Shown here piece after piece: positions 3,131 to 62,242 of a stretch of 64,000 bases of DNA. How positions within the stretch are numbered: the first letter of the stretch is position 1; the number at the start of each line of letters is the position of its first letter. The stretch spans positions 42,533,820-42,597,819 of the forward strand of contig NC_057712.1 of NCBI RefSeq assembly GCF_004010195.1. Reading direction: 5' to 3'. A program made the position numbers and the translations under genes. The DNA is from Chiloscyllium plagiosum. Its lineage: Eukaryota. Below the pieces are notes generated by a model. That model searched no databases. It was given only the letters and a program-made list of their open reading frames with translations, and had not been told where the DNA came from.

Positions 3131-3410
3131 CTGGATTTGTTTATTCTACTTTGTGTTTTGAGAGAATATCCCTCAATTGCATCCAAACAAGTTCCTGATG
3201 GGAAGTAGCCAATTGTTTCGTGACAACCCTTGGTTACAGTCTACTCAACTGAGCTCTGTTCTGTTCTTGTGCCATTAAACAAATGGCAACCAACACAAAC
3301 TAGGAACTGGTGTAACAATGTAGGAATCTATTTATGAAGAAAGTTGTTTATTGACAGAAACTATATAATCTGAAAGATTATTTGCATGAATTACTGACCT
3401 GATTTAAGCA

Positions 3411-4057
3411 TAGGATAGTGAAGAAGGCATTTGGTATGCTTTCCTTTATTGGTCAGAGTATTGAGTACAGGAGTTGGGAGGACATGTTGCAGATGTACAG
3501 GTCATTGATTAGGTCACTGTTGGAATATTGTGTGCAATTCTGGCCTCCTTGCTATCGGAAAGATGTTGTGAAACTTGAAAGGGTTCAGAAAAGATTTACA
3601 AAGATGTTGCCAGGGTTGGAAGATTTGGGCTATTAGGAGAGGCTGACCCGGCTGGGGCTGTTTTCTCTGGAGCATCAGAGGCTGAGGGGTGACCTTATAG
3701 AGGTGTATAAAATTATGAGGGGCATGGATAGGATAAATAGACAAAATCTTTTCCCTGGGGTCGGGGAGTCCAGAACTAGATGGCATAGATTTAGGGTGAG
3801 AGGGGAAAGATATAAAAGAGACCTATGGGGCAACTTTTTCGCACGGAGGGTGGTACATGTATGGAATGAACTGCCAGATGAAATGGTGGAGGCTGGTACA
3901 ATTGCAACATTTAAAAAGCATTTGGATGGGTGTTTGGAGGGATATGGGCCGGGTGCTAGCAGGTGGGACTAGATTGGGTTGGGATATCTGGTCGGCATGG
4001 ATGAGTTGGACCGAAGGGTCTGTTTCCATGCTGTACGTCTCTATGACTATATGACTC
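3411..4057 (+). mobile_element. CR1 LINE 3' fragment (young family, similar to 1-326)
   Basis: LEYCVQFW...LERVQKRFTK, WNELP motifs, CTATGA tail. Confidence 0.92.
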
Positions 4058-5805
4058 ATTAAGGGTAATTTGATTTTGAAACAGCATAATTATATTTGAA
4101 TCTAACCTGCGACTTAGAACTAAAACATCTGAAAATTGTTAATGTGGATATCAAAACAAGAAACAAAGTGCTGGAAAGCACACAACTGGTGTACTGGCAT
4201 CTGAATCGAGAACGCCTTATAAGTGTAAACCTTTCTTCTGAACTCTGTTTTGAAGAATGACTCACACTGAAGCTGTTAACTTGTGCGCAAAGTCTCCAAA
4301 AATCAACTAACCTGTAGCGTATTTTCAGTATTTTCTGTTTTGGTGCTTCTGCAGTTTACAACAGAAAATCTTGAGGTTCATTCTTTCCCTTCCCAATCTT
4401 GTGACTAGAACATATTTACAGACCATATCATTTGCTAACTTTGTACAGACTGAGCCTGGGGCCCCAGCTGGCCCACATACTCAGGATTCACACTTTTATT
4501 TCAAATACAAATACTCATAAGCCTGACATTTTCATGGTGGGGATGGGCATCTTTGGTCAAAAGCAACATTGTGGAAAGTACTGGTACAGCTCTGGAGAAC
4601 TGGGTCAAATTGTTATAAATGGGCAAGGATATGTATCCTCTCGGGTTTATTTAGGAAGTATGAGGGTTGATCAAGTCAAGGTCCTTCTTGCCCACCTTGC
4701 AGTATCTGAAATATAGTATTCTGTAGCTTTCATGGTGTATCACTGAACAGATTCCAGAAAGGAAAATATCAATCCTAAAAAAAAAATCTACAATCACAGA
4801 AGCTTCGCCAGAATATTAGCAGTGAATTACGATGCAGCGATTGACAGTAAACCACTCTACCCATGCATAAGAAGACACATGAAACTTTTAAGAAAGGGAA
4901 AAAGACCTTTGGGAAGATTTACACAATTACATGATTCCTTATGGATTCAGACAAGATGAAATGAATGAAAATGGATAAATGTTTATGGCAAAATTGACGG
5001 TGTTATAGAAAGGGAAGGTTAGAAGATAAATGAAACTAGATCTTAAGAGGCTAAGATGCATAAAGGAAGTCCTCAAAGTGTGGAAAAATCTCAACTAGTT
5101 TCTAGTGTTACAGATTAAGTCAGAAGTAACCGGGCTATAAGAGAACCTCTTTTTCAGGATTCAGAGTTTTAAGTATTCTTTAGCTTGGACCTTGGAATTC
5201 AGACCAAACTTGTCAATAATACTAAATTTGTGCAAATTACTGATTTTGCATAAAACTGATGTATACTAACTGATCAAAGATGTCAATTCTCCAACCTCCT
5301 GAAAAGAATAGTTTATTGCCTGCAATCATTTTGCTTTTTTTCTCCTCAATAAGTGAGCTTTAATCACAAGGTTAACTTCAATTCAATCAAAATGTTTATT
5401 TCCAACAATAAATCTAAGAATTTATTACTGAAGTGCAAAGATCTTCATATACCAACTGATGTCACTGCACCTTTGTGCATGCACTGTTGCTATATAAACT
5501 GATTTCTCCGAAAGAAAATGTAAAGGTTTGGGGGGGGTGGGGTTCACAAAAAGTATTTAAAATTTAGCATCATTCTCCAATGTTTCAATTTCATAACACA
5601 AACTATTACGTAGGAGAGAGAAATTAAAATGCATTTGGAATCCTGAAAAACAGCACAAAATTCTTCTCAGAATTTCAAAGCAACAAACGTTTTGTCATAG
5701 CCCTTGCCAAGACAGGTAGCAAAACTCAAGGTCAATACAAAAGAGAGTTGATTGACCACTACCAGCACTTGTCTTTTAGACTGGGAGTACTTCACCGTAC
5801 TATAC

Positions 5806-5916
5806 CTCTGGAGATGGGATTCGGCGTTCAGGGGAGTCTGGTGACTTATAAGGAGTTGATGTTTTGCTGTTTGTCAACCATGGTTTATCATAATTGCGGA
5901 TTAAATGTTGGGATGT
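5806..5916 (-). CDS. DST: DST cassette exon (111 nt): TSQHLIRNYDKPWLTNSKTSTPYKSPDSPERRIPSPE
   Basis: cacag|ACA ... GAG|gtatag; 37 codons, phase 0/0; RNYxKPWLTNSK matches the recalled spectraplakin alternative exon. Confidence 0.9.
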
Positions 5917-6414
5917 CTGTGTGAAACAAGGATACATTGAAAATGAATGGAAATTAAGACAATAAAATAAAATGATCAGGAATAAACACAGTGTCATGGA
6001 GGAGGAAATGCAAATATGGAGGAGTAAAAGTTTAAAAATACAATGATGAAGATCCACTCTGTGACTCCCTTCAATTGAGGGGTCTAAATGTGAGTCAGGT
6101 TAGTAAGCAATCTGCGATATCTGGCATGCATTTAGCTTTCTTCGATTAGTGGGGTATTGCAAATGCACACTCGCTATTTTTTCACAATAAATTCCTAATA
6201 ACAAAACTGAAGTTGGATTCAAGCTTAATGGTCGCTATGGTAGTGTAATTAAGGTAACAAAATAGCAGCTTAAAAGTGAGATTGCTGTAACAATGCAATT
6301 AAGCAACACACAGAAGCCAACAGACTGAGTGCTACATTGGGTTAAAATAATTGGCTTGCCAAAATACATAGGTCACAGGAAACAACTGGAAGTGACTGTG
6401 CTGCTCAACATTAC

Positions 6415-6608
6415 CTTAGGAGGTGTACTTGTAGTTACTGGTGGAACTGAAATACTCTGACTGGCACTGGAGGTTGACCTGTTTGGCGAAGCGGCCCGTG
6501 ATGATGGCCGTGACCTACGACCCCGTGATCGGAAGGCAGCCACAGACTGACCGGTGGTTTCAGGAAGCATGAATTTTTCACGCAGTTCAACATTTGTTCT
6601 GCCCTTTG
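6415..6608 (-). CDS. DST: DST exon (194 nt): (A)[16 protein letters not shown]...[17 protein letters not shown]...TSTPPK
   Basis: ctgcag|CA ... AAG|gtaatg; phase 1/0; basic Ser-rich microtubule-binding tail. Confidence 0.95.
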
Positions 6609-7129
6609 CTGCAGAGAGGAATAAAACAATAGTTCAAATTCTAATCACTGGTGTTGACATGATCCAGCACCAAACTTGCAATAACAAGGTGAAGTGTGGA
6701 GAGAAAATAAAAGAGTACAGGAGGACTAAAAGGTGGTAACAGAACGATGAAACAACACTAAAATCTGAATTAATAGCCTATCCATACCAGCAACAGAACT
6801 TGCAACAGCAGCACTCAACATTTGGGCTTGTGTATGTATGGAGCATGACATGAATTAGCCCAGCAAAATTCAGAAAACTTAAATGGAAATAAAAAGAAAA
6901 GTTCTGATCTTATTAAATGTTTCAGTTCAGATTCACACTGTGAGCTACGCAAGAGTTTGAACTCCACTAACATCATGCAGTCAGTTTAAGAAAGCCCAGG
7001 GACCCATGTAAGCAAACCCAACTCCAAAAACTTGTGCAGAAGCTCAAAACAGCACATCACTTTCAGGCAGAACAGATATGTACATTCCACTTAGGAGGAT
7101 GCTAAATATCAGACAAGGTGACCACTTAC

Positions 7130-7144
7130 TTGCAGTGAGTATTA
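7130..7144 (-). CDS. DST: Candidate 15-nt DST microexon: (V)ILTA(T)
   Basis: Strong acceptor gacttttttcttttacccgcag|, consensus donor AA|gtaagt, length divisible by 3, open in the phase-1 frame; no recalled protein match. Confidence 0.55.
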
Positions 7145-7358
7145 CTGCGGGTAAAAGAAAAAAGTCATATAAGCAACTTCACATGCATTTCAAAATGGCC
7201 GATCATTCTGTATTTGGTTAAAAAAACTAAAAGCGCATTGGATTACAGTTCTCTTTATAAAAAAAACATGAAAAGCCTGCTGTCAGCTGCCATGTGGGTT
7301 AAGCCATACAGAATAGGAAAGCACACAGTGGAAAGAAAAGAGACAGAGGATTGCCAAC

Positions 7359-7427
7359 CTATAGGAGACTGACTGGTAATTGAAGAGTTTGATTCCGAAC
7401 GCAACATTTTACTCCCATGATGATGAA
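7359..7427 (-). CDS. DST: DST cassette exon (69 nt): (V)HHHGSKMLRSESNSSITSQSPI
   Basis: ttctag|TT ... ATAG|gttggc; symmetric phase 1/1; peptide matches the recalled DST alternative segment. Confidence 0.9.
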   Translation of the reverse strand, partial: FIIMGVKCCVRNQTLQLPVSLL

Positions 7428-7941
7428 CTAGAAAAAAAATGGATAAAGGGATTGCATCACATCAAAGGAAATGGAGAAGAAACCTTTAGTAGGAAACAGG
7501 AGCAAGCAAAGGATTGACAAAACAACACCCATGAGATCATTTAAGCTGCTTCTAACATACAAATAAGCTAACAACTGCAGAATACTCAAGATATTAAAAA
7601 ACCTCCATCTTTGCAGATACAGAATTTAAATTTTTGTCACGTTATTTACTTAAAAATCATTACATTCTCTACATTCCTTCTTACTCCCCTTCCAAACAAA
7701 ACACCAGTAAAGTTGGTGGTTCTTGGTGACAAGGTAACACTTGCAGCTTTGACTCAAGTGACGTGCTTTGAATCTGAATTCAGACCGAGGTATCAATTGG
7801 CTAATAAAAGTGGACATACGGGTGAGCTTAATCCATTCCACTTACACTTAGTTTTCAATAAAGAATCAGCAATCTGACTGATTATTTTTCCCCACCGTGG
7901 CTTATTATGGCTGAGGTCAATTCTAGTTCGTGAAGAACACG

Positions 7942-9240
7942 CAGTGCTGCCAACTCTCCAGGGTTGGTCTGCAATCTCCCAGAATTAAAGATTAATATCC
8001 AGTTCAATATTATGAGAAATATTCAAAGAAATATTATACAATCTTCAAGAGGAAGTGCATGATGTTTTCATTTTCTTTCAGCACTTCCATTTATTAGTTG
8101 TAAAAACATTGGAAACAGGTTGTTTAACTGATCAATGGTGCTCTGCTGGGATCAGTGCTGGGTCCACTTTTGTTTGTCATTTATATAAACAATTGGGATG
8201 AGAATATAGGAGGCATGCTGCATATGACAGCAAAATTAGTGGAATAGTCAACAGTATCTGAGATTATAAAGGGATCTTGAGCAATTGGACAAATGGGCTG
8301 AGGAGTAACAGATGAAGTTTAATTTGGATGAATGCGACGTATTGCATTTTGATATAACAAACATGGTCAGTCCTTATACAGTTATTGAGAGGGCCCTGGA
8401 TAGTGTGGTTAAACAAAGAGACCTATAGGTTCAGGTACATAGTTGTTTGAAAGTTCTGTCACAGGTAGACAGGATAGTTTGGCATGCTTGCCTTCCTTGC
8501 TCAGTTCATTGAGTACAGGAATTGGAACATCGTATTGAGGTTCAGGACGTTGGTGAGGTCAAGTTTAGAGTACTATGTATCGTTCTGATCTCCTTGCGAG
8601 AAGAAGGATATTATTAAATTGGATAGAATTCAAAAAAGATTTGCAAGGATGTCAGGATTGGAGAGCTTGAGTTATAAGAAGAAGCTGGATAGGCTAAGTG
8701 TTTTTTCAGTGGTGCATAGGAGGTTGAGGGGTAACTTTATAGAGGTTCATAAAGTCACAAGGGACATAGGTACGGTAATAGCCATCTTTTCCCTATGGTA
8801 GGGGGAGTCTTCCAAACCAGGGGATGGGAGGAGAGAGATTTATAAGTGACCTGAAAGGCAGCTTTTTCACACTGAGGAACTGCCAGAAAAAGTGGTAGAT
8901 GCAGGTACAATTACAATATTTAAAAAAACATTTGGACAGGCACACGGATAGGATAAGTTTAGAAGGATATGGGCCAAACGCAGGCAAGTGGGACTAGTTT
9001 AGTTTGGGAAACTTGGTTGAAATGGATGAATTGGACCAAAGGGGCTGTTTCCAAACTGTGTGACTCTATGACTCTAATAATGAATCTTTCAATCAGGTAG
9101 CTAAGAAGCTGTTACACTACACTTGAGCAGAAGAATGGGATAGATTCTGGCATGAACGGCAGGACAGAGGGGTAGGACAATTGCAGACAATTGATCATGT
9201 GGTGAGACCTTCAGAAATACATCCAAAGTGGGCAATAGTA
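7942..9240. mobile_element. Possible ancient non-autonomous hAT-like element split by a CR1 insertion
   Basis: Left end GCTGCCAACTCTCCAGG...AGAATTAAAGATTAAT and right end TCATGTGGTGAGACCTTCAGAAATACATCCAA...GGCAA resemble a recalled ancient vertebrate MITE with TAGGGTTGCCA ends; terminal inverted repeats (TIRs) are degenerate. Confidence 0.4.
8130..9075 (+). mobile_element. CR1 LINE 3' ~0.95 kb
   Basis: GSVLGP region, DRIQKRFARM, TGACTCTATGACTCT tail. Confidence 0.88.
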
Positions 9241-19489: not shown

Positions 19490-19708
19490 TTAGCGATTTT
19501 TGAGAAGATTTGTAGCTCAGGTTGATGGTAAGTATCTAAGTTAGCTCGCTGAGCTGGAAGGTTTGTTTTCAGATATTTCGTCACCATGACTTGGTAACAT
19601 CATCAGCGTCTTCGCTTTAGGGGAGACTCTCACTGATGGTGTTACCTCGTCATGTGACAAAACATCTGAAAACAAACCTTCCAGCTCACTGAGCTAACTT
19701 ACATATTT
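19490..19708. mobile_element. Palindromic Penelope-type mini-element (family B) with hammerhead cores
   Basis: Inverted arms ~19537-19606 and ~19633-19701; minus-strand CTGATGA-T-GTTACCA-AGTCA-TGGTGAC-GAAA; one-sided tail shared with 57307-57477. Confidence 0.75.
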
Positions 19709-20137: not shown

Positions 20138-21684
20138 ACAAAGAACAAAGAAAACCTACAGCCCAGGAACAGGCCCTTCAGCCCTCCAAGTCTGAGCCGA
20201 TCCAAATGTACTGTTTAAACCTGTCGATCAATTCCTAAGCATTTGTATCCCTCTGCTCCCCACCTACTCATACATCTGTCAAGACACATCTTAAATTAAT
20301 CTACCATGCCTGCCTCTACCACCTCTGCTGGCGACGCATTACAAACACCCACCACCCTCTGTGTGAAGTATCTTGCCGCATGTATCCCTTTTAAACTTTC
20401 CACCTCTCACCTTGAAAGCATGACCTCTCGTTACTGAATCCTTCACCCTGGGAAAAAGCTTGTCTCTATCCATCCTGTCTATACCCTTCATGATTTTGTA
20501 AACCTCAATCAAGCCCCCCCTCAATCTCCTTTTTTCTAGTGAAAATAAATCTAACCTACTCAACCTCTCTTCATAGCTAGCACCTTCCATACCAGGCAAC
20601 ATCCTCATATACCTTCTCTGCAACCTCTCCAAAGTGTCCACACCCTTTTGGTAATGTGGCGACCAGAACTGTACACATTATTCTAAATGCAGCCGAACCA
20701 ACGTCTTGTACAATTTTAACATGACTTGCCCTTCAGGGTACAATGGACCTGCACTCCCAGATCTCTCTGCCCATCAACTTTTCCCAAGGCTCTTCCGTTC
20801 ATTGTATAATTCGCTCTAGAATTAGTCTTGCCTAAATGCATCACCTCACATTTGTCTGGATTGAAAGCCCTCTGCCACTTTCCCGCCCAACTCTCCAGTC
20901 TATCTATATCCTCCTGTATTCTCTGATAGTCCTTTATGCTTTCTGCTACTCCCCCAATCTTTGTGTCATCTGCAAACTTGCTGATCATACCAACAGTGCC
21001 CTCTTCTAGATCATTTATGTATATTACAAACAACACTGGCCCCAATACTGACCCCTGTGGAATATCACTGGTCAACCTTTCTCCATTTTGAGAAACTCCC
21101 TTCAACTACTACTCTCTGTCTCCTGTTGCTCAACCAGTCTATCCACCTAGCTAGAACATCGTGCACACCATGTGACTTCATTTTCTCCATTAGTCTACGA
21201 TGGGGAACCTTATCAAATGCCTTACTAAAGTCCATGTATATGACATCAACAGCCCTTCCTTCACCTATCAACTTGGTCACTTCCTCGAAGAACTCTATTA
21301 AGTTGGCAAGGCACGATCTCCCCCGCACAAAACCATGTTGTCTATCATTGATAAGCTCATTCTTTTCTAAATATAAATAGATCCTATCTCTCAGTACCCT
21401 CTCCAGCAACTTCCCCACCACCGACATCAGGATCAGTGGTCTGTAGTTACCCGGAATATCCCTACTAACCTTCTTGTACAGGTGGCCAACATGTGCAACC
21501 CTCCAGTCCTCCGACACCTCACCTGTACTTAAGGATGCTACAAAGATATCTGTCAAGGCCTCAGCTATTTCCTCTCTCGCCTCCCTCAGCAACCTGGGAT
21601 AGATCCCACCCGGTCCTGGGGATCTGTCCACCTTAATAACCTCTAGCATACCCAACACAACTTCTCTACTTATGCCAACTTGAC
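20138..21684 (-). mobile_element. CR1 LINE, 5'-truncated (RT to 3' end)
   Basis: SPGPGGIYPRLL, QHGFVRGRSCLANL, YMDFSKAFDKVPH, PQGSVLGP, FADDTK. Confidence 0.95.
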
Positions 21685-21961
21685 AAAATATGTGACAAAA
21701 GCAGAGATTAAAACTCACTAGAATGCTCTTCAGTGTAGATTTGAAGGGATGAATGGCCTTCCTCTGTGCTATTGTAATTTATGATTCTATAATGCCTCTT
21801 TCATTTTCAAAAGTCTGATTTTCATTGAAGTAGTTATCAGCAATTGTATTCCTTTGTCAAAATAAAATCCTCAGTTCAATTTTATTCCATTTGAGAGAAT
21901 ACAGGCTTAAGAGGAATTTACTGGTTGTCATTTCATTCATTACAAGTCTTAAAACATTTAC

Positions 21962-23154: not shown

Positions 23155-26100
23155 GCAGAACACACTACAGCGTAGTGCAGGCCTTCAGCCCTCGATGTAG
23201 CACCAACTTGTGAAACCAGTTTGAAGTCCATCCAACCTACACTATTCCATTTTCATCCATAAGTTTATCCAATGAACATTTAAATGTCATTAAAATTGGC
23301 GAGTCTACAACTGTTGCAGGCACGGCATTCCAAACCATTACTACTCTGAGTAAAGAAACTACCTCTGACATCTGTCCTATATCTATCATCCCTCAATTTA
23401 AAGCTATGTCTCCTCGTGCTAGGCATCACCATCCGAGGAAACAAGCTCTCTCTGTTCACCTTATCTAATCATCTTGTATGTCTCGATTAAATCACCTCTC
23501 AACCTTCTTCTCTGTAACAAAAATAGCCTCAAGTCCCTCAGCCTTTCCTCATAAGACCTTCCCTCTATACCAGGCAACATCCTGGTAAATCTCCTCTGAA
23601 TCCTTTCCAATGCTTCGACATCCTTCCTATAATGTGGTGACCAGAATTTTATGCAATATTCCAAGTGAGGCCGCACCAGTTTTGTAACTGCAACATGGTT
23701 CCAAAACTCAATCCCTCTACCAATAAATGCTAATGCAGCATAGGCCTTCTTAACAACCCGACCAACCTGGATGGCAACTTTCAGGATCTATGTACACCTA
23801 TGTACCGAGTTCTCTCTGCTCACTACACTACCAAGAACCTTACCACTAGCCCAGTACTCTATTCCTGTTGCTCCATCCAAAGTGAATCACCTCACACTTT
23901 GCTGCATTAAACTCTATTTGCCACCTCTCAGCCCAGCTCTGCAGCTCAGCTATGTCCCTCTGTAACCTGCAACATCCTTCAGCATTATTCACAACTCCGC
24001 CGACTTTAGTGCCATCCGCAAATTTACTAACCCATCATTCTACATCCTCTTCCAAGACAAACAGCAGTGGTTCCAAAACAGATCCTTGCAGTACACCACG
24101 AGTAACTGAACTCCAGGATGAATATTTCCCATCAACCACCACCCTCTGTCTTCCTTCAACCAGCCAATTTCTGATCAAAAGCGCTAAATCACCCTCAATC
24201 CCATGCCTTCGTATTTCCTGCAATAGACTACTGTGGAGAACCTTATCAAATGTTTTACTGAAATCCATATACACCACATCAACCGCTTTACCCTCATCCA
24301 CCTGTTTATTCATCTTCTCAAAAAACTCAGTAAGGTTTGTGAGGCACAACCTAGCCTTCACAAAACCAAGTTTACTATCCCCAATCAAATTATTCCTTTC
24401 TAGAATATCATAAATCCTACCTCTTATAATCCTTTCCAATACTTTACCCATAACCGAAGTAAGGCTCACTGGTCTATAATTACCAGGATTGTCTCTACTC
24501 CCCTTCTTGAACAAGGGGACAACATTTGCTATCCTCCAGTCTTCTGGCACTATTCCTTTGGACAATTAAGACATACAGATCAAAGCCAGATGTTCTGCAA
24601 TCACCTCCCTACCTTCCGAGAGAATCCTAGGATAAATGCCATCCAGCCCAGGAGACTTCCCTATTTTCACACTTTACAGAATTGCTAACACCTCCTATGA
24701 ACCTCAATCCGGTCTAATAGCCTGTATCTCAGTATTCTTAACCTCCTATCTCCTTGGACTCCACGTACAACTTCCCACTACTGTCCCTGACTGGCCCTAA
24801 TCTTACTTTTATTCCTGAAATACCCGTAGAAAGCTTTAAGGTTTTCCCTGAATCTAACTGCCAAAGACTACTTTTGTCCCCTTTTGACTCTTCTTTGCTC
24901 TCTCTTTAGGTCCTTCCTAGCTAACTTGTAACTCTCAAGCACCCTAACTGAGCCTTTACGTCTCATCCTAACCTAAGCCGCCATCTTCCTGTTGACAAGA
25001 GCTTAACTTCTTTAGTGACCACAGCTCTCTTCTCAAACACTTCCTCCCTGCCTGACAGGTACATACTTATCAAGAACAATCAGTAGCTGTTCCTTGAATA
25101 AGCTCCACATTTCAATCGTGCCCATCCCATGCAACTTCCTTCCCCATCCTATGCATCCTAAATCTTGCCTAATTGCATCATAATTGCTTTTCCCCAGCTA
25201 TAACTCTTGCCCTTTGGCATATACCTATCCCTTTCCATCACTGAAGTAAATGTAGCCTAATTGTGGTCACGATCACCAAAGTGCTCACCTCCCTCCAAAT
25301 CTAACATTCGGCCTGGTTCATTACCCAAATCCAATAATGACCTCTTGTTGGACTACCTACATACTGTGTCAGGAAACCCTCCTGCACACATTGGACAAAA
25401 AATGACCCATCTAAAGTACTCAAAATATAGCATTTCCAGTCAATACTTGGAAAGTTAAAGTCCCCCATAACAACTACCCTGTTACTTTCATTCCTATCCA
25501 GAATCATCTTTGCGATCCTTTCCTCTCCATCTCTTGAACTATTCAGAGGCCTATAGAAAACTCCCAACAGGGTGACCTCTCCTTTCCTGTTTGTAACTTC
25601 AGCCCATACAACCTCAGTAGATGAGTCCTCATCAAACGTCTTTACTGCCACAGTAATACTGTCCTTGACTAAGAATGCCATCCCCCCACCCTTTTACCAC
25701 CTTCTTTGTTCTTACTGAAACATCTAAACCCCAGAACCTGCAACAAACATTCCTGTCCCTGTTCTATCAATGTCTCCAAAATGGTCACAACATCGAAGTC
25801 CCAGATACCAGCCCATGCTGCAGGTTCACCCGCCTTGTTATGGATGCTCCTGGCATTGAAGTAGACACGCTTCAAACCACCGTCTTGCCTGCTGGTACAC
25901 TCTTGCAACCGTGAAACCTTATTAATGACCTCACTACTCTCAACCTTCTGTACACCGGAGCTACAATTCAGGTTCCCATCCCCCTGCTGAATTAGTTTAA
26001 ATCTTCCTGAAGAGCATTACCAAATTTCTCCCCCAGGATATTGGGAGACCATTCCGTTTGTCGAGGTCCCACCTACCCTAGAATGAGCCCCAATTATCCA

Positions 26101-34544: not shown

Positions 34545-35930
34545 TAATTTTCACTGCAGGTCAACAGGCAGCAAAAACTACCCTGAGTAAACCCTCTCAC
34601 ACCTTGCTTCTGGTAAGGACTCTATTCCATTCTCCTAACATTCCCATCTCTCGTGTTGTTTTCAGATGATTCAACCTTTTACACTAGCGCTTACAATATG
34701 TCTTTTGTTTTTCCTTCACCAAGGAATACCCATGTTTGACAGGACTCTCCACCATATCCATGCCATTTCACCCACCTCTGCTTTGATCCAATTCCCTCAC
34801 TCCTAAAACATGATAGGATTCTCCTTGTCCTCATTTGCCTTTGACATCATCCAACCACCAAAACTGATGTTGTCCTGTTCTCCCTTTACAGCAATCCAAA
34901 GTGGTCCTTTCCTCTGTAATGTCCTGATCCACTTCTCAACCAACTCAAAACCCCACTCACCTTTCTGACAGCATCTTTGCATGCAAGCATAGGAGATGTG
35001 ATATCAATATATTTACACTTTTCTTTCTCAATTGCCTAGACAGTGATTTATTTGAACTTTTTTAATTCATTCATTTTAGCATTCATTGCTCATCAATCTT
35101 TACTGCACTGTCAGAAATCACACAACACCAAGTTATAGTCCAACAGGTTTATTTAAAATCACAAGCTTTCAGAGCTTGGCCCCTTCGTCAGGAAAAGTCA
35201 GTGAAGGAGTAGCAGTCTGAAAGCTTGTGGTTTCAAATAAACCTGTTGGACTATAACCTGGTGTCGTGTGATTTCTGACTTTGTCCACCCCAGTCCAATA
35301 TCGGCACCTCCACATCATGATTCTACTTCACTGAACAGACAAAATGTAGACTGGGTGACCGCTTTGGGTCTTCAGTTGTAAGCATGAACCTGAGCTCCTC
35401 ATTGCTTGTCATTCCAATCCACCACCTTGCTCCCTCTCCTTCTGTCCTTAGCCTATCATGTTCCAACAGACCTCAAGGCAAGTTTGACGAACAGCTTCTC
35501 ATCTTATGACTCAATAATTTTAAGTTCAATAATTTTAGTTTATAACCTCTGCTTTGACTATGTTTTGTTCACACTTATTTCTTCATTCCTTAACTTGCAT
35601 TTGGTTTGCTGTCACTTTGTAACAAGCTATGCAACCATTCACTTATTATTTGGATACATTTTTATTCTTTACAATCACCTGTACCTCTGGCTTTTGCATC
35701 ATTTACATTTATATTTAATCTGCCACTCACTGCGTCACAAACATAATCTTTTCTTCTTACTCCTCTTGCACCTCTAAACCTATTACATTTTCATCTTTCT
35801 TCCATTCTGATGCAAGGTTACTGACTTGAAACTCTAACTCTATTTCTCTCCACTGATGCTGTCTAACTTGCTGAGGATTTTCAGCATTTTGCACTTTTAG
35901 TTCAGATTTCCAGCACTGGCAGTATTCTGT
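34545..35930 (+). mobile_element. Decayed Penelope-like element (RT C-terminus, GIY-YIG region, terminal repeat with hammerhead relic)
   Basis: Degenerate KDSIPFS (~34615) and RLGDRF (~35348) motifs; terminal CTGATGCAAGGTTACTGACTTGAAAC at 35807 followed by a typical pseudo-LTR (pLTR) tail. Confidence 0.65.
35110..35323. mobile_element. Palindromic Penelope-type mini-element (family C) with hammerhead core
   Basis: Inverted repeat 35110-35279; minus-strand CTGACGA-A-GGGGC-CAA-GCTCT-GAAAGCTT; flanking TACTGCACTG / TACTTCACTG; homologous to 61156-61373. Confidence 0.8.
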
Positions 35931-39095: not shown

Positions 39096-39156
39096 TTGTG
39101 TCTCAGGATTCTCTGATTCTGTGTTCAGTGCAAATCATAACTCACTATTAGTTAAT

Positions 39157-41105
39157 AGTCATAGAGTCAGAGACATACAGCACAGAAACAGATCTTTCGG
39201 TCCAATTTGTCCATGCCGACCAGATATCCTAACCTAATCTAGTCCCATTTGCAGCACTTGGCCCATATCCCTCTAAACCCTTCCTATTCATATACCCATC
39301 CAAATGCTTTTTAAATGTTGTAATTGTCCCAGCCTCCACCACTTCCTCTGGCAGCTCACTCCATACACACATCAATCTTTGCATGAAAAAGGTGCCCCTT
39401 AGGTCCCTTTAAAACTTTTCCCCTATCACCCTAAACCTATGCCCTCTAGTTCTGGACTACCCCCACCTAGGCAAAAGACGTTGTCTTTTTATCTTATTCA
39501 CGCCCCTCAAGATTTTATAAACCTCTGTAAGGTCACCCCTCAGCCTCCGATGCTCCAGGGAAAACAGCCCTAGCCTTTTCAACTTCTCCCTATGGCTCAA
39601 ATCCTCCAACTCTGGTAACATTCTTGTAAATCTTTTCTGAACCCTTTCAATTTCACAACATCCTTCCGATAGGAAGGAGACCAGAATTGCAATCAATATT
39701 CCAAAAGCAGCCTAACCAATGTCCTGTACAGCCGCAACATGACCTCCCAACTCCTGTACTCAATACTCTGACCAATAAAGGAAAGCATACCAAACGCCTT
39801 CTTCACTATCCTATCTACCTGCGACTCCACTTTCAAGGAGCTATGAACCTGCACTCCAAGGTTTCTTTCTTCAGCAACACTCCTTAGGACCTTACCATGA
39901 AGTGTATAAGTCCTGCTAAGATTTGCCTTTCCAAAATGCAGCACTTCACATTTATCTAAATTAAATCCCATTTGCCCTCCTTGGATCAAGATCTCATTGC
40001 ACTCTGAGGTAACCTTCTTTGCTGTCCACTACACCTCCAATTTTGGAGTCAACTTACTAACTATACTTCCTATGTTCATATCCAAATTATTTATATAAAT
40101 GATGGAAAACTGTGAACCTAGAACTGATCCTTGCAGTACACGACTAGTCACAGGCTCCAGTCTGAAAAGAAACCCTCCACCACCACCCTCTGTCTTCTAC
40201 CTTCAAGCTAGTCCTATATCTAAATGGCTAGTTCTCTCTGTATTCCATGCGATCTAACCTTGCTAACCTGTCAACCATGAGGAAGTTTGCTGAATGCCCG
40301 AATGAAGTCCAGATAGATCACACCCACCACTCTTCCCTCTTCAATCCTCTTTGCTACTTCTTCAAAAGACTCAGTCAAGTTTGTGAGACATGATTTCCCA
40401 CGCACAAAGCCATGTTGACTATCCCTAATCAGTCCTTGCCTTTCCAAATACATGTAAATCCTGAGCCTCAGGACTCCCTTCAGCAACTTGTCCACCACCG
40501 ATGTTAGGCTGACCGGTCTATAGTTCCCTAGCTTTTTCTTATCATCTTTCTTAAATAGTGGCACCGTGTTACCCAACCTCCAACCTTCCAGCATCTCACC
40601 TGTGACAATCGATGATGCAAATATCTCAGCAAGGGACCCAACAATCACTTTCCTAGCTTCCCAGAGTGTTCTGGTGTACACCTGATCAGGTCCTGGGATT
40701 TATCCACCTTCATGCATTTTAAGACATCCAGCACATCCTCCTCCATAATCTGGACATTTTCAAAATATCTTCCATGCCACTCACCACAGTAAACACTGAT
40801 ACAAAATACTCATTTAGTGTCTTCCACATCTCCTGTGGTTCCACACATAAGTTGCCTTGCTGATCTTTGAGGAACCTTATTCTCTCCCTAGTTACCCTTT
40901 TGTCCTTAATGTATTTATGGAATCCCTTTGGAATCTGCCTAATCCTATTTGCCAAAGCTATCTCGTGTCCCCTTTTTGTCCTCCTGATTTCCCTCTTAAG
41001 TATACTCCTACTGCCTTTATACTCTTCTAAGAATTCACTTGATCTCTGCTGAATATACTTGACATATGTTTCCTTATTTTTCTTGACCAAAATCTCAATT
41101 TGTCT
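39157..41105 (-). mobile_element. CR1 LINE, 5'-truncated
   Basis: NYRPVSLTS, QHGFVRGKSCLTNL, KCEVLHFG, ERVQKRFTRM; GACTCTAT tail. Confidence 0.95.
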
Positions 41106-46256: not shown

Positions 46257-47117
46257 CTGAAATGGAAAGGCAGAACGTATACGGTAAGATTAGACAGTGA
46301 CAGACACAGCTGAATCTTCTTCAAACTTAAAACCACAAACAGGAAGCTTGGCTTGCTAGTTTGAAAAGCCACTCCGGTTACCTCCAGCACCACTTACAAC
46401 ATGCCTTCAAAAATATTTGCTAAAAAGTGTAAACAACCAGGACTGATGCAAGTTAAAAATATCATCAGGGCTTCCTGATGGGTCAGTGTCAGAAAGGACT
46501 TTGCCAAGCATAACACCAAACATCACAACCTAGGAGTGTCCAAAAATGTAGTTCCAGTTTGCACTGTGAGAATATCTGCCAGGCAGGAAGGTGAAATACC
46601 AGAATTAGTCACCTGACCTAAAGCTGAAAATAAAGTTTTCAACCCTGAAAATGTCTGAAGTGGCCCTTGTTGGAAAGTGAGCATTGATGGTGGGAAGGGA
46701 TCAAGGACAGGTCCCAGTGTTGTGGAAATACTCACATGAAGAACTTCTAGTTGGGAGCAGGGTGGTTCTTTTGAGTTGACAGAGCACAGTACTTCAGACA
46801 GCTTGTCCATTCTACACTGGAATGGTGAAATCAGCTGTAACATGCAATGGGGGCCAATCTCTTAATTGCCCATCTTTACAACACACCAAGATCATAAGCT
46901 CTATTTACTGTGTCCAGGAGTGGGAAAAACAGGGGAAAATTCAAAAGATGCAATATAGTGAAAAGAATCTTAACACTTTTATGAATGCAGGGATCAAGTT
47001 TGTAGTTGTTATATTCAATATTTACTTTCTGGATATGAAATTAGCTTGGAGAGTTTTCAAATCTATAACTGAGCAGTGTTTTTAAGCCAGCAATTATCTA
47101 TTCTATGAACCCCATGA

Positions 47118-48061
47118 TTTGGATGTGAACATAGGAGGTACAGTTAATATGTTTGCAGATGACACCAAAATTGGAAGTGTAGTGGACAGCAAAGAAGGTA
47201 CCTCAGAGTACAATGGGATCTTGATCAAATGGGCCAATGGACTGAGGAGTTGCAGACGGAGTTTAATTTAGATAAGTGAGGTGCTGCATTTTGGAAAAGC
47301 AAATCTTAGCAGGACCTATACACTTAATGGCAAGGAGTGTTGTTGAACAAAGAGATTTTGGGAATGCAGGTTCAGAGTTCCTTCAAAGTAGAATTGCAGG
47401 CAGTGAGGATAATGAAGAATGCATTTGGTATGCTTTCCTTTATTGGTCAGAGTATTGAGTATAGGAGTTGGGAGGTCATGTCGTGGCTGTACAGGACATT
47501 GACTAGGCCATTTTTGGAATATTGCATGAAATTCTGGTCTCCTTCCTATTGGAAGGATGTTGTGAAACTTGAAAGGGTTCAGAAAAGATTTACAAGCATA
47601 TTGCCAGGGTTGGAGGATTTGAGCTGTAGGGAAAGGTTGAGTAGGCTCGTGCTGTTTTCCCTGGAGAGTTAGAGGCTAAGAGGTGACCATATAGAGGTTT
47701 ATAAAATCTTGAGGGGCATGGATTAGATAAATAGAGAAAGTATTTTCCCTGCGGTGGGGAGTCCAGAACTAGAGGGCAGAGATTTAGGGTGAGAGTGGTA
47801 AGATATAAAACAGACCTAAGGGGCAACTTTTTCATGCAGACAGTGGTCCATGTATGGAATGATTTGCCAGAGAAAGTGATGGAGGCTGGTGCAATTACAG
47901 CATTTAAAAGCATCTGGATGGGTATATGAATAGGAAAGGTTCAGAGGGATATGGACCAAGTGCTGGCAAATAGGACTAGATTAGGTTAGGATATCTGGTC
48001 GGCATGGACGGTTTAGACCCAAGGGTCTGTTTCCGTGCTGTACGTCTCTCTGACTCTATGT
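47118..48061 (+). mobile_element. CR1 LINE 3' ~0.95 kb
   Basis: FADDTKIG, LEYCMKFWSP, WNDLP, TGACTCTATG tail. Confidence 0.93.
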
Positions 48062-49006: not shown

Positions 49007-50512
49007 TTACTTAATCAAATGGCAGTACTCACACTACGTATTCAGAGCTGACTGTATGTAAACCAATTAGAACAGGATAAATGCAGCACACCAAACATGC
49101 AGGTGACAACATTCCTTCCCATTCCCAACTTCATAATCTCCTCCCCTAATCCCCTACACCTCTTTGACAGCTCCATCCTAACTGGCACCATCATTCTGAT
49201 ACTAGCTGACAAATCTATGCCTGACTGCCTCTGATACAATGTCAGGAGTGGGTTGGATCTTTATTGAGTTAAATAGATTGGGAACATTATATATCTGTAA
49301 ACCTCCAAGCCAAGAAAAAACCGGCTCACACCACACAACCTTAGTGCACGAAAAAAGATGGAGAACAAAGAAAAGCAAGAAAGAAAGGTAAAGGACAAAT
49401 AAAAGGAAGGAATGAAATAAGTAAACAGAAATGAGTTTAAAGAGAAAAACAGAATGAAGGGGACATCCCAGCACCTTAGTGCAAAAGATAAGGCTGAAGC
49501 ATTTGAAATCACTTTAAGCCATAGGACTGAGAAAATGATCCCTCTCAGCTATCTCCGAGGTCCTAGCATCATGGGTGCCAGTCTTCAGCCAATTCAATTT
49601 ACTCCACATGATATCAAGAAATGATTGAAGGTGCCAGATACTACAAAGCTTATGGACCCTGACAAGATTCTTGCAAAAGGACGAAAGACTTTTGTCCCTA
49701 GCCAAGCTGTTCCAGAACAGTTACAACTCTGGCATCTACCTAGTAATGTGGGAAATTGCTACGGTCTTCCTGGCCCTCAACAAGTTGGACAAATCAAACC
49801 TGGCGAATTACTGTGCCATCACCACCATTTTCATGAGAGCAATCGGGGATGGACGATAAATGCTGGACTAGTCAGTGGCAGCCACATTTAGCGAACAAAT
49901 AATTTAAAAAAGTGCGAAGTGGAAGCCTGGCAGAAAAATACGTACAGGATAAGATTTGAAATTTTTTTAATAACTCGGTAAATCAAAAATCAACTGCCTT
50001 TATTTTGAACTCTCAGTGGACCATGTGATGTGCACTGACATATGGCTGAGTCTTGGAAAACTAAAACACAATGCAGCCCACATGGATACCCCAGTCAGGA
50101 CAAAAATCGAGGATGGCACTCAAGATTTCATTTAAACTGAGCCAGTTGCTCAAGCTTTATAGACTGGGTGGAAAAACTAAAAGGAAAGTGAGATTCATAG
50201 TAACTATCAATTTTATGGTTGGCATGGACTGGTTGGAGCGAAGGGTCTGTTTCCATTCAGTATGACTCTACTAAAACAAAGGTTTCCACTTTGAAAGTTT
50301 CATGGGGCCCCGCCATCCAGTCACATTAAATATTACCTAATCAAACGGCAGTACTCACACTACGTATTCAGAGCTGACTGTCTGAAAACCAATTAGAACA
50401 GAATAAATGCAGCACACCAAAGACAGAAACAAACCTGGTGAATTACTGTCCCATCACCACCACTTTCATGAGAGCAATCAGGGATGGACAATAAATGCTG
50501 GACTAGTCAGTG
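49007..50512 (+). repeat. Local duplication: 49007-49095 and ~49788-49877 recur, joined together, at 50333-50512
   Basis: Near-identical GGCAGTACTCACACTACGTATTCAGAGCTGACTGT and CATGAGAGCAATC...AAATGCTGGACTAGTCAGTG in both places. Confidence 0.85.
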
Positions 50513-57306: not shown

Positions 57307-57477
57307 CGTTCTGGATGTAAGCTTGCTCACTGAGCTGGAAGGTTTGTTTTCAGACGGTTCTTCACCATACTTGGTAACATCATCAATGAGCCTCCGGTGA
57401 AAACGAACCTGCCAGCTCAGTGAACAAACTTACATCCAGAACCTCAACCCGAACTACAAATCTTCTCAAAACTCGTT
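57307..57477. mobile_element. Palindromic Penelope-type mini-element (family B) inserted in an old CR1 3' fragment
   Basis: Inverted repeat 57308-57442; tail is the reverse complement of 19491-19525; flanking AGCTATGTA / AGCTATATA. Confidence 0.75.
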
Positions 57478-58317: not shown

Positions 58318-59035
58318 CTGCACATAATGAGATAGTGGTCAATTGATCAACCTTCATAATTGCTAAATGTCCATTGAAAGCACTCATTATTCTTTCCTCA
58401 AATTACAACACGAACTACACTTCAGAAATTTGCCTATGAGACATCTTGGAATTTATCAAGGTTACAAAATATGCTTGTTCGTTCTTTCTCTTTACTTTGT
58501 ATTTAAAGTGAAGAGTATCAGGAGCGAGGAGTGGAACATTTTCCACTTATCAGGTACTCTCAATTTAGGTACAGCACTGTTTAATGCAGGTAAAGCTCCT
58601 TCTACTCTGCTCCAACAACATATCTCAATCTATTCCTCAGAAATGTCCATGCTCTCTATACTTCATCACACTTTTCCATTTCCCACAGCGAAGCAATTTC
58701 TGTGATTCCCCTACCTGAGATCACCTATTTAACGGCAAGTTTTCATACTACCACCTCTGAAACATCTTCTTGTCTACAATGACCCAAGCATATTATTCAG
58801 TATTCAAATTCCATTTTCAATTTCATGTTTCCTTATAAATGAAAAATTGCCTCAATGCTTTGGGCTGCTTTACATTATTAAAGATGTTATATTAATGCAA
58901 TTGTTGTTTTAATTGAACTTGAAAATTATTCAGCAAAACAAGGGATAAGAAACTGCTTTAATGTATTAAAAACTGAGAAAACAATTTGAAACATTTTTAC
59001 ACCATTTCACATTAGTAAAATACACACTGTTGTAC

Positions 59036-59197
59036 CTTTCGTTCATTTAGTTTTACTTCAACCGATTCCCATCTTTCCTTTAGGTTGTTGATGCCTTGCT
59101 CCACGTTACTGTCATCAACACCCTTATAGCTCAGCTGCCCCTTATTTATCAGGTCCTTGTAGATCTCCTCTTTGCTTTCAAATGCAGCACAGAGTTC
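59036..59197 (-). CDS. DST: DST exon (162 nt): ELCAAFESKEE...ERWESVEVKLNERK
   Basis: ctag|GAA ... AAG|gtacaa, 54 codons. Confidence 0.92.
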
Positions 59198-60790: not shown

Positions 60791-61155
60791 TGTGGTAGTT
60801 AATTTAACCAGAGCAAATTCCCACAAATATCAATGAAAAAATGTTGAAAAATCATCTTTAATGACACTTTTGAATGGTACATATCGACAACTAGGAAACC
60901 GCTTCCTTCTTTTCATCGCATATGTCATGAAATCCTTCACATGGTTTCACTTTCTGTGCAAAAGATGGCACCTTCACTGGTTCAGTAATTAGAGTTAGAT
61001 TGATGGCCTAGATTTACATGCTCAAGGCTCAGAAATCGGGCTTAAACCATGATTTTCTGATTCAGGTTACAATTGTGTTACAATTGACAACAGTATTTTT
61101 TTTGCCTCCTTACAATGGAAGAAAATAGGTATAATATGCATTCATATAAATAAAT

Positions 61156-61373
61156 GTTAAAAATCACACAACACCAAGTTATAGTCCAACAGGTTTAATT
61201 GGAAGCACACTGGCTTTCGGAGCGTCGCTCCTTCATCAGGTGCCAACTACCTGATGAAGGAGCGGAGCTCCGAAAGCTAGTGTGCTTCCAATTAAACCTG
61301 TTAAACAGTAACCTGGTGTTGTGTGATTTTTAACTTTGTGCACCCCAGTCCAACACCGGCATCTTCAAATCAT
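61156..61373. mobile_element. Palindromic Penelope-type mini-element (family C) with two back-to-back hammerhead cores
   Basis: ~85-bp arms 61156-61334; ~38-nt one-sided tail; 13-nt direct repeat TCATATAAATAAA at 61142-61154 and 61370-61382. Confidence 0.85.
61248..61282 (+). ncRNA. Minimal type I hammerhead ribozyme motif
   Basis: UAC-CUGAUGA-A-GGAGC-GGA-GCUCC-GAA-AGCU-A-GUG: intact core, 5-bp stem II, palindromic AGCU in place of stem III, stem I UAC/GUG. Confidence 0.7.
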
Positions 61374-61530
61374 ATAAATAAAAGTTTTAGTTTCTATAAT
61401 AACGAGAAATGCAAGCTTTCCAATCTTCAAGAGAATTTTTCAAGTTATACAAACGGAACTTGAAAGATGGGGTCCCACTGAAGCCAGTGTTAGGTACTTT
61501 GCCCTCTTTTAGAAGCATCATTCAACACAA

Positions 61531-61890
61531 GTCACAGTGGCTCAGTGATTAGCACTGCTGCCTCTCAGTGCCAGGGACCGGGTTTGATTCCAGCCTTGAG
61601 CATCAGTCTGTACGGAGTTTGCACATTCTCCCCACGTCTGCGTGGGTTTCCTCTGGGTGCTCCGGTTTCCTTCCACAGTCCAAAGATGTGCAAGCCAGGT
61701 TAATTGGCCATGCTAGATTGCCCATAGTACTCAAGGATGTATAGGTGAGGGGCATTAGTCAGGGGAAAATGTAGAACAATACAAAGTTGGGGAATGAGTC
61801 TGTGTGGGATATTCTTTGGCGGGTCAGTGTGGACTTGTTGGGTTAAATGGCTTGTTTCCACACTGTATGGATTCAATTATTGATTCTATG
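61531..61890 (+). mobile_element. V-SINE, HE1-like shark SINE, full length
   Basis: A-box TGGCTCAGTGAT, B-box GGTTTGATTCC, V-domain GTCTGCGTGGGTTTCCTCTGGGTGCTCCGGTTTCCTTCCACAGTCCAAAGATGTG, CR1-like tail, AAGTCA direct repeat. Confidence 0.9.
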
Positions 61891-62113: not shown

Positions 62114-62242
62114 CAGATGAACGTTAAGCTGCTCCCTGGCAGTTTCTGGCAAGCCTCCAACAGGTTTTGATGCCGACAGCTGACGGTCAATGTCTACCAG
62201 CCAGCGCTGCATATTTTCAATCTCGCTCTGGAAACCTTGAGC
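62114..62242 (-). CDS. DST: DST exon (129 nt): [15 protein letters not shown]...[15 protein letters not shown]
   Basis: atag|GCT ... CTG|gtacgt, 43 codons, GGLPETA spectrin motif. Confidence 0.95.

Follow-up and report, generated by a model that had tools for sequence, protein, structure and literature searches.

The 64-kb stretch of DNA analysed here (the window) is mostly intragenic. Spectrin-repeat, EF-hand and GAS2 exons are predicted on its minus strand, and the four repeat units described below thus all lie in spectraplakin introns. Unit A1 (61156-61373), the main subject of this report, occupies the intron between two predicted minus-strand dystonin exons, 62114-62242 upstream and 59028-59197 downstream. 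One window exon matches dystonin-named proteins at 81-88% (one hagfish and one frog match are named MACF1), which bears out the original placement of A1 within a dystonin intron of a minus-strand host gene. A tRNA-like, SINE-type repeat lies at about 61537-61800, 150 nt to the right of A1, and we take it to resemble the shark HE1/V-SINE type. Many LINE RT and 3'-end fragments, presumably CR1/L2-like, are also found in the introns (1-331, 3410-4062, 8143-9076, 20309-21778, 23537-24565, 39152-40599 and 47114-48060), and two neighbouring 90-nt stretches, 50333-50421 and 50422-50512, repeat at 92-94% sequences that lie apart from each other further upstream (49007-49095 and 49788-49877, respectively).

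Palindromic units in the window

Unit A1 is a ~220-base hairpin in which two short copies of one end of a very abundant repeat, the end that bears the ribozyme, are joined head to head. The direct repeat, inverted arms and one-sided tail noted originally are all present. A 13-bp plus-strand target-site duplication flanks the unit at an AT-rich site (61142-61154 on the left, 61370-61382 on the right), the first 4 nt of the right copy being common with the tail end (microhomology), and the AT content of the 30 nt preceding A1 is 83% versus 60% across the window. The arms called by program (61153-61241 and 61249-61337) are 89 nt each and 90% complementary; checked by eye, they extend from 61156 to 61242 and from 61244 to 61334, with outer ends at 61156 and 61334. 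The inverted arm (minus strand, 61156-61242) has no tail; it starts 3 nt upstream of hammerhead C3 and extends to +84. The direct arm (plus strand, 61244-61334) begins 7 nt upstream of C3 and is followed on the same strand by a tail of 39 nt (61335-61373; 35 nt without the overlap with the duplication), and a single junction base, 61243, joins the two truncated arms. A short spacer had been described, and 7 nt do separate the program-called arms, but the family sequence upstream of the core shows this apparent spacer to be mostly unequal 5' truncation: 7 nt upstream of the core are kept on the right arm and 3 on the left, plus the junction base. The direct arm also contains a private 4-base cluster (61303-61308), which creates a near-palindrome locally. 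Four private right-arm changes (61298-61308) account for 4 of the 9 differences between the arms, and the near-palindrome at 61298-61308 is likely to have arisen from one template-switch event.

Both predicted hammerheads were recovered. The plus-strand copy (61248-61282) has an intact core, a 5-bp stem II, a bulge, the palindromic tetramer AGCT and no stem III, the composition of a minimal type I hammerhead, with a predicted cut after A61279. The host-sense copy on the minus strand (61242-61208) carries a U16.1-to-C change at 61212 that destroys both its cut triplet and its dimer palindrome. The two cores are 11 nt apart and mutually complementary. Each arm further contains a poly(A) hexamer, ATTAAA, located at 61291-61296 on the plus strand and, in host sense, at 61194-61199 on the minus strand; the hexamer reads AATAAA in unit A2, in metagenome contig L002 (see below) and in many members of family A. 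In the direct arm a plus-strand GU-rich stretch at 61313-61333 is placed like a downstream poly(A) element and may serve as one. A GU-rich stretch after a hexamer is the layout of a canonical poly(A) signal.

The long double-stranded RNA hairpin that had been anticipated for A1 is strongly predicted, with the whole unit folding at -141.6 kcal/mol (z = -21.7) and none of 200 shuffles reaching that stability. Whichever strand is transcribed, the antisense arm precedes the ribozyme. Neither stem I nor stem II is predicted to pair in the full unit (probability 0), where imposing the ribozyme fold would cost 55 and 44 kcal/mol, such that the expectation of a ribozyme on whichever strand is transcribed stands in the letters only and fails in the predicted fold. 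In a lone arm, stem II forms with a predicted probability of 0.8-1.0. The hexamer is likewise predicted to be fully paired within the palindrome and to have 4 of its 6 bases free in a lone arm. A1 is predicted, on these folds, to be a silent hairpin in host pre-mRNA with ribozyme and poly(A) signal both buried.

Four units in two families had been proposed for the window, and a profile search returned the same set: A1 at 61156, A2 at 35110, B1 at 57308 and B2 at 19491. Only these 8 arms exceed the reversed-window control and no lone arm was found; all 8 sit in palindromes (19491-61373) within this mostly intragenic window, yet lone stubs are common in the family. Unit A2 (35110-35318, plus strand) represents another subfamily of family A, with a different centre, an intact host-sense core and a decayed antisense core. 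Unit B1 (57308-57477, plus strand) has a ~10-bp duplication with 2 mismatches, and its tailed arm, which is without the core, begins exactly at the predicted hammerhead cut, on the first base after it (57398). This start looks as if copied from cleaved RNA, a single case among the eight arms. Unit B2 (19491-19704) has its tail on the minus strand and an intact host-sense core; its stem II opens with an ATG (29 nt to the cut, 108 nt to the tail end). A clear target duplication was found for neither A2 nor B2, and the AT content of the flanks of the four units is 83, 63, 60 and 90% versus 60% for the window. Every unit has a one-sided tail, the tail direction differs within family B, and the centres differ among all four. 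The tail-less arms of A1 and A2 stop at the same base, and both arms of each A unit belong to one subfamily. No AATAAA follows the hammerhead in family B, which nonetheless makes stubs.

Cores combined with stem II and a palindromic tetramer occur three times in the window (61251 on the plus strand, 35191 and 19606 on the minus strand) and in none of 30 simulated windows; by itself, the loose core pattern is not above chance (14 matches against a mean of 8.6, reached by 7 of 100 shuffles). Rfam gave no match at the gathering threshold over the whole window, and none to a hammerhead family on 61230-61380 with E allowed up to 10. The damage to the host-sense core claimed for A1 is real, but it does not extend to a general preference, with host-sense cores damaged in A1 and B1 and intact in A2 and B2. 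We rejected selective loss of host-sense cores on this basis (2 of 4 intact, a small set).

Relationship to Penelope-like elements

Short, ORF-less units with long inverted repeats and high copy number also describe a MITE moved by a DNA transposase. The inverted repeat of A1, however, stops short of the right end at the 39-nt tail, the duplications are long and unequal among the units (13 bp in A1, about 10 bp in B1, none found in A2 or B2), arms also occur singly, and the centre is not common to the units. We regard a MITE as largely refuted, with a residual probability close to nil.

The same features are those of an insertion unit of an EN+ Penelope-like element (PLE). As described in the accessible text of PMC8557442 and PMC3846280, such a unit joins a 5'-truncated copy to an adjacent inverted, head-to-head copy, with a 30-40 bp tail at one end, a variable duplication and a hammerhead in the pLTR. 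A1 has the hammerhead block, the inverted truncated copy and a one-sided tail of 30-40 bp, and the duplication at AT-rich DNA is variable (13 bp in A1, about 10 bp in B1). It departs from the described units in that both copies are cut to 87-130 nt without an ORF and truncated 3-7 nt before the core; the accessible portions of the same two papers make no mention of a poly(A) site inside the block. The PLE origin proposed for A1 is supported, as are its minimal type I hammerhead and its inverted end with tail, and we consider it very probable that A1 is a PLE insertion unit formed of an inverted truncated pLTR plus tail.

The hammerhead of A1 resembles the metazoan PLE minimal hammerheads in the accessible text of PMC4209133, which have no stem III, a palindromic tetramer, a bulge after A9 and a G10.1-C11.1 pair. 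That text describes mostly solo motifs from truncated PLEs and, in Schistosoma, opposite-strand pairs 100-700 bp apart, whereas only 11 nt separate the A1 cores, which are complementary to each other; the part of it available to us does not name sharks. As far as can be judged from the same source, minimal hammerheads in PLE ends, their solo copies and opposite-strand pairs are already in print. Non-LTR retrozymes (bioRxiv 10.64898/2026.07.22.740005, in the accessible portion) offer a second comparison, being ORF-less and pLTR-derived with a type I hammerhead like A1, and they have been found in one cartilaginous fish, with many monomers. They are head-to-tail tandems, however, whereas A1 is head to head with tail and duplication, and the accessible text of that preprint makes no mention of palindromes, head-to-head units or polyadenylation. 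The units here do not fit that definition, 4 of 4 being head to head rather than head-to-tail tandems.

Searching the window with 120 PLE-type proteins (tblastn) returned no PLE ORF; the matches were of a chimeric protein to LINE fragments, plus one weak match. No autonomous element of family A was seen, and the link to an enzyme is an indirect one, through DNA from elsewhere. A scan of metagenome contigs for the hammerhead gave two loci, both identical to A1 over 34 nt (L001 968-1001 and L002 1332-1365), and in both the hammerhead lies near a coding fragment, the distance being about 600 nt for an RT fragment and 750 nt for a GIY-YIG-like one. The RT fragment is near one locus and an endonuclease-like fragment with a Cys-rich linker near the other, and they are 66% and 52% identical to a Scyliorhinus torazame (catshark) protein that belongs to the RT plus GIY-YIG group and has a Cys-rich linker joining RT and EN. 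This Zn-finger-like motif between RT and EN is present in L002 and in 105 of 120 relatives, which are not known to include family A's own protein. The accessible text of PMC8557442 gives such a linker for Neptune and Nematis. L001 and L002 are short, rearranged contigs of other origin, with the RT on the opposite strand in L001. The L002 fragment had no Pfam match, and GIY-YIG appeared only as a weak match on a relative (E 0.009). The two contigs have in common a 677-nt segment (99.6%; L001 374-1050, L002 738-1414) of composite PLE structure, which ends in the hammerhead and includes 109 nt from the RT-EN linker region in inverted orientation.

The closest biochemical comparison is anole (Anolis carolinensis) Poseidon PAc, which cleaves and extends both strands of AT-rich DNA and starts inside its RNA at two sites bounding the tail, needing RNA beyond them and no ribozyme cleavage (PMC11167929). 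The units here likewise have two template ends that bound the tail, about 85-125 nt after the core. Family B is close to PAc in detail, the ATG of B2 lying in stem II with 29 + 108 nt against 26 + 111-118 in PMC11167929. Family A differs from PAc in having no open frame through the hammerhead, in having a poly(A) module there, and in that its linked proteins have a Neptune-type Cys linker. Inverted arms, stubs and polyadenylation are not treated in PMC11167929.

Family A in public DNA and RNA

We assessed family A in three public DNA runs, mapping contigs on the arm plus tail. Between 32,161 and 40,450 contigs matched per run, in line with the great abundance foreseen for the class, and the summed depth on the arm was 1.3 to 4 million versus 5 to 10 on unique flank of the same run. 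This suggests some 10^5 family A arms, a rough figure in that summed depth does not equal copy number. By this rough estimate, obtained by a different method, family A appears far more abundant than the 4,000-9,000 given for coelacanth and Xenopus in the accessible text of PMC4209133. Family patterns had no match in viral and prokaryote collections, and scans for PLE proteins there yielded no confirmed locus.

Contig depth across the A1 centre was 0.9%, 0.5% and 0.2% of core depth in the three DNA runs, values that may under-count palindrome centres as assembly-graph contigs break at repeats. At 61243, 81%, 77% and 72% of contig depth shows another letter, and the best listed joints from 61241-61242 carry differing inserted letters, none above depth 319 among the joints listed. 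In each DNA run, 218-236 contigs have mixed, unrelated sequence before 61249 with only the nearest 11-18 letters common, indicating that lone stubs starting just before the core exist. In the two relatives examined, no contig covered the unique right flank of A1, and no empty site was seen. Other joints in the DNA contigs go back from 61372 to 61309 and from 61357 to 61309, a hint of short partial tandems of the arm end. Family A copies often run on with GACT past the tail (61373), creating an ATG at the tail end that is a possible ORF start; L002 has an ATG at +135, at its contig end.

These counts bear on the original proposal of a non-autonomous palindromic class, in which the whole 220-nt hairpin would be transcribed and re-inserted as a unit. 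Such a class would account for the fixed outer ends common to A1 and A2 and for the palindromic state of all four window units, and PLE-derived non-autonomous elements have been described (bioRxiv 10.64898/2026.07.22.740005, accessible text). The centres, however, are private to each unit, with less than 1% of contig depth crossing that of A1; lone stubs are common; and tail direction varies within family B. In addition, anole Poseidon needs about 55 nt of RNA beyond its priming site (PMC11167929), which are absent in a stub, and the hairpin is predicted to hide any RNA signal. We conclude that movement as a palindromic unit is improbable. The A1 palindrome was, with good likelihood, made anew, its mirror half built in this one insertion.

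The RNA data come from one poly(A) single-cell run of one sample, ~2% of it read, with the same species label as the best DNA run. A total of 2,285 family A reads matched, of which 1,055 terminate in a run of A residues that has no genomic template and begins 13-15 nt past A(A/T)TAAA. These reads leave the reference at 61302 (792 reads) or 61282 (263 reads) and continue with family sequence and then the A-run, with agreement of the A-run ends at 0.92 and 0.88, respectively; DNA contigs at 61302 and 61282 continue with element sequence, not with an A-run. The family A polyadenylation position is thereby placed at 61309-61311 (plus strand), +59 to +61 from C3, 13-15 nt past the hexamer at 61291-61296 and just before the GU-rich stretch. 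This is a family-level site, and no RNA data set was listed as containing the unique flank of A1. The sense excess in RNA is 5-9 fold up to the poly(A) site and 1.1-1.3 fold beyond it, and RNA reads also cover the tail on both strands. No pile-up of RNA reads was listed at the hammerhead cut, where the 30-nt 3' product would be too short to map.

Loop II variant frequencies in RNA track the genomic mix, indicating that many copies contribute RNA. Upstream loose ends agree at 0.72-0.75 in RNA versus 0.42-0.44 in DNA, and the tailed RNAs therefore derive from copies that extend beyond the typical stub on the upstream side. Read length by itself accounts for the 22-nt median by which the RNA reads overhang upstream. 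The RNA consensus before 61249 stops at 25 letters though 30 are printable, which may reflect a read-length limit or an RNA 5' end. At six arm positions the RNA shows 16-19% A>G and 17-19% T>C versus about 1% in DNA. C>T and G>A rise equally (19-25%), so that all four kinds of transition are raised alike, a pattern that points to divergent expressed copies more than to A-to-I editing. Use of the hairpin by ADAR or Dicer, as originally suggested, is at most putative.

A possible alternative source of the tailed reads is host transcripts in which stubs serve as cryptic poly(A) sites, a process that would play no part in the element cycle. Hundreds of thousands of copies (a rough estimate) would provide ample opportunity, and there is one RNA run only, whose reads reach a short way upstream. 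However, the tailed reads carry element-like sequence on their upstream side, with far less variation than DNA shows there, and the distant copy in metagenome contig L002 has kept both hexamer (AATAAA at +48) and GU-rich stretch. We therefore view this explanation as unlikely.

Origin of the palindrome and its implications

Both genomic 3' ends lie downstream of the poly(A) end of the family A RNA, by 25 and about 62 nt, which means that priming at the tail of this RNA cannot have produced the inserts. Taken together with the private centre, the fixed outer ends at +84 and about +123, the duplication with its 4-nt overlap and family polyadenylation at +59 to +61, this makes A1, with its two head-to-head repeat ends, probably a dead-on-arrival insertion of a Neptune-type Penelope-like retrotransposon. 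By analogy with anole Poseidon, the PLE protein would nick both strands of AT-rich DNA and start reverse transcription within the RNA, at two sites separated by about 35-40 nt. A start at about +123 would give the tailed arm and a start at +84 the tail-less inverted arm; both cDNAs would stop a few bases upstream of the core and be joined, leaving the 13-bp duplication.

An alternative with the same PLE origin makes the inverted arm by self-priming or fold-back on one template. Here the downstream pLTR of a read-through RNA would be copied, with 5' ends clustering where the RT drops off near the ribozyme. Fold-back has been proposed for rotifer Penelope (PMC3846280); the arms of one unit have common subfamily markers, and the tail is covered by RNA reads on both strands. 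Finding one subfamily per A unit fits fold-back copying as well as it fits two priming events. Against fold-back, no palindrome is present at the A1 junction other than the arms, the tail-less arm stops at one fixed base in both A1 and A2, and the arms end upstream of stem II, which the RT had already passed. We judge fold-back somewhat unlikely, and proceed with two internal starts as the preferred reading.

Transcription of PLEs is described as beginning in the upstream pLTR (PMC6765202, accessible text). The position of the poly(A) site suggests that the unit mRNA would then be terminally redundant, starting just upstream of one hammerhead block and ending inside the next. If transcription does start in the upstream pLTR, an mRNA whose poly(A) end lies upstream of both starts would contain the priming sites only in its 5' block, and copying from there would yield only about 90-130 nt, like unjumped strong-stop DNA. 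Retroviral R-U5 strong-stop DNA is made from a terminally redundant RNA, with a poly(A) signal followed by a GU-rich stretch, on which the RT starts near the 5' end. The likeness is one of analogy: priming here would be by nicked target DNA rather than a tRNA, and the short product would be inserted. Long copies might be made by read-through, by a template jump or through circles as proposed in the accessible text of PMC4209133. Priming in the 5' block as the source of the stubs is a tentative proposal, to which we assign somewhat less than even chances; stub formation in family B, where AATAAA is missing after the hammerhead, speaks against it, and fold-back priming would fit as well. Still more speculatively, PLEs of this type may copy in a retrovirus-like order, with the mRNA polyadenylated in the hammerhead block and the RT starting in the 5' block; full copies and pLTRs would then arise via a jump or circles, stubs and mini-palindromes would be integrated strong-stop products, and self-hidden poly(A) palindromes would be tolerated in introns while host-sense lone stubs are purged, the 4 units in this gene all being palindromic.

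As an object, A1 is ordinary for its class. What is new is the poly(A) site within the hammerhead block and its position relative to the priming sites. We found no poly(A) site or strong-stop model for PLEs in the literature as accessible to us, including PMC3846280, PMC2377424, PMC11167929 and bioRxiv 10.64898/2026.07.22.740005, with subscription papers, Repbase/Dfam and supplements outside the scope of this search. A poly(A) end inside the hammerhead block would explain the commonness of short, dead stubs in family A, and internal starts combined with that poly(A) position provide one testable reason for stubs, tails and inverted arms alike. The poly(A) position also supports the view that a second type of PLE initiates internally in vivo. 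Stubs and palindromes are in this sense a readout of PLE mobility, which the literature accessible to us still calls undefined. Finally, the poly(A) signal of this very large repeat family works, and it may affect the host introns in which copies reside, although the hairpin form may cancel such effects.
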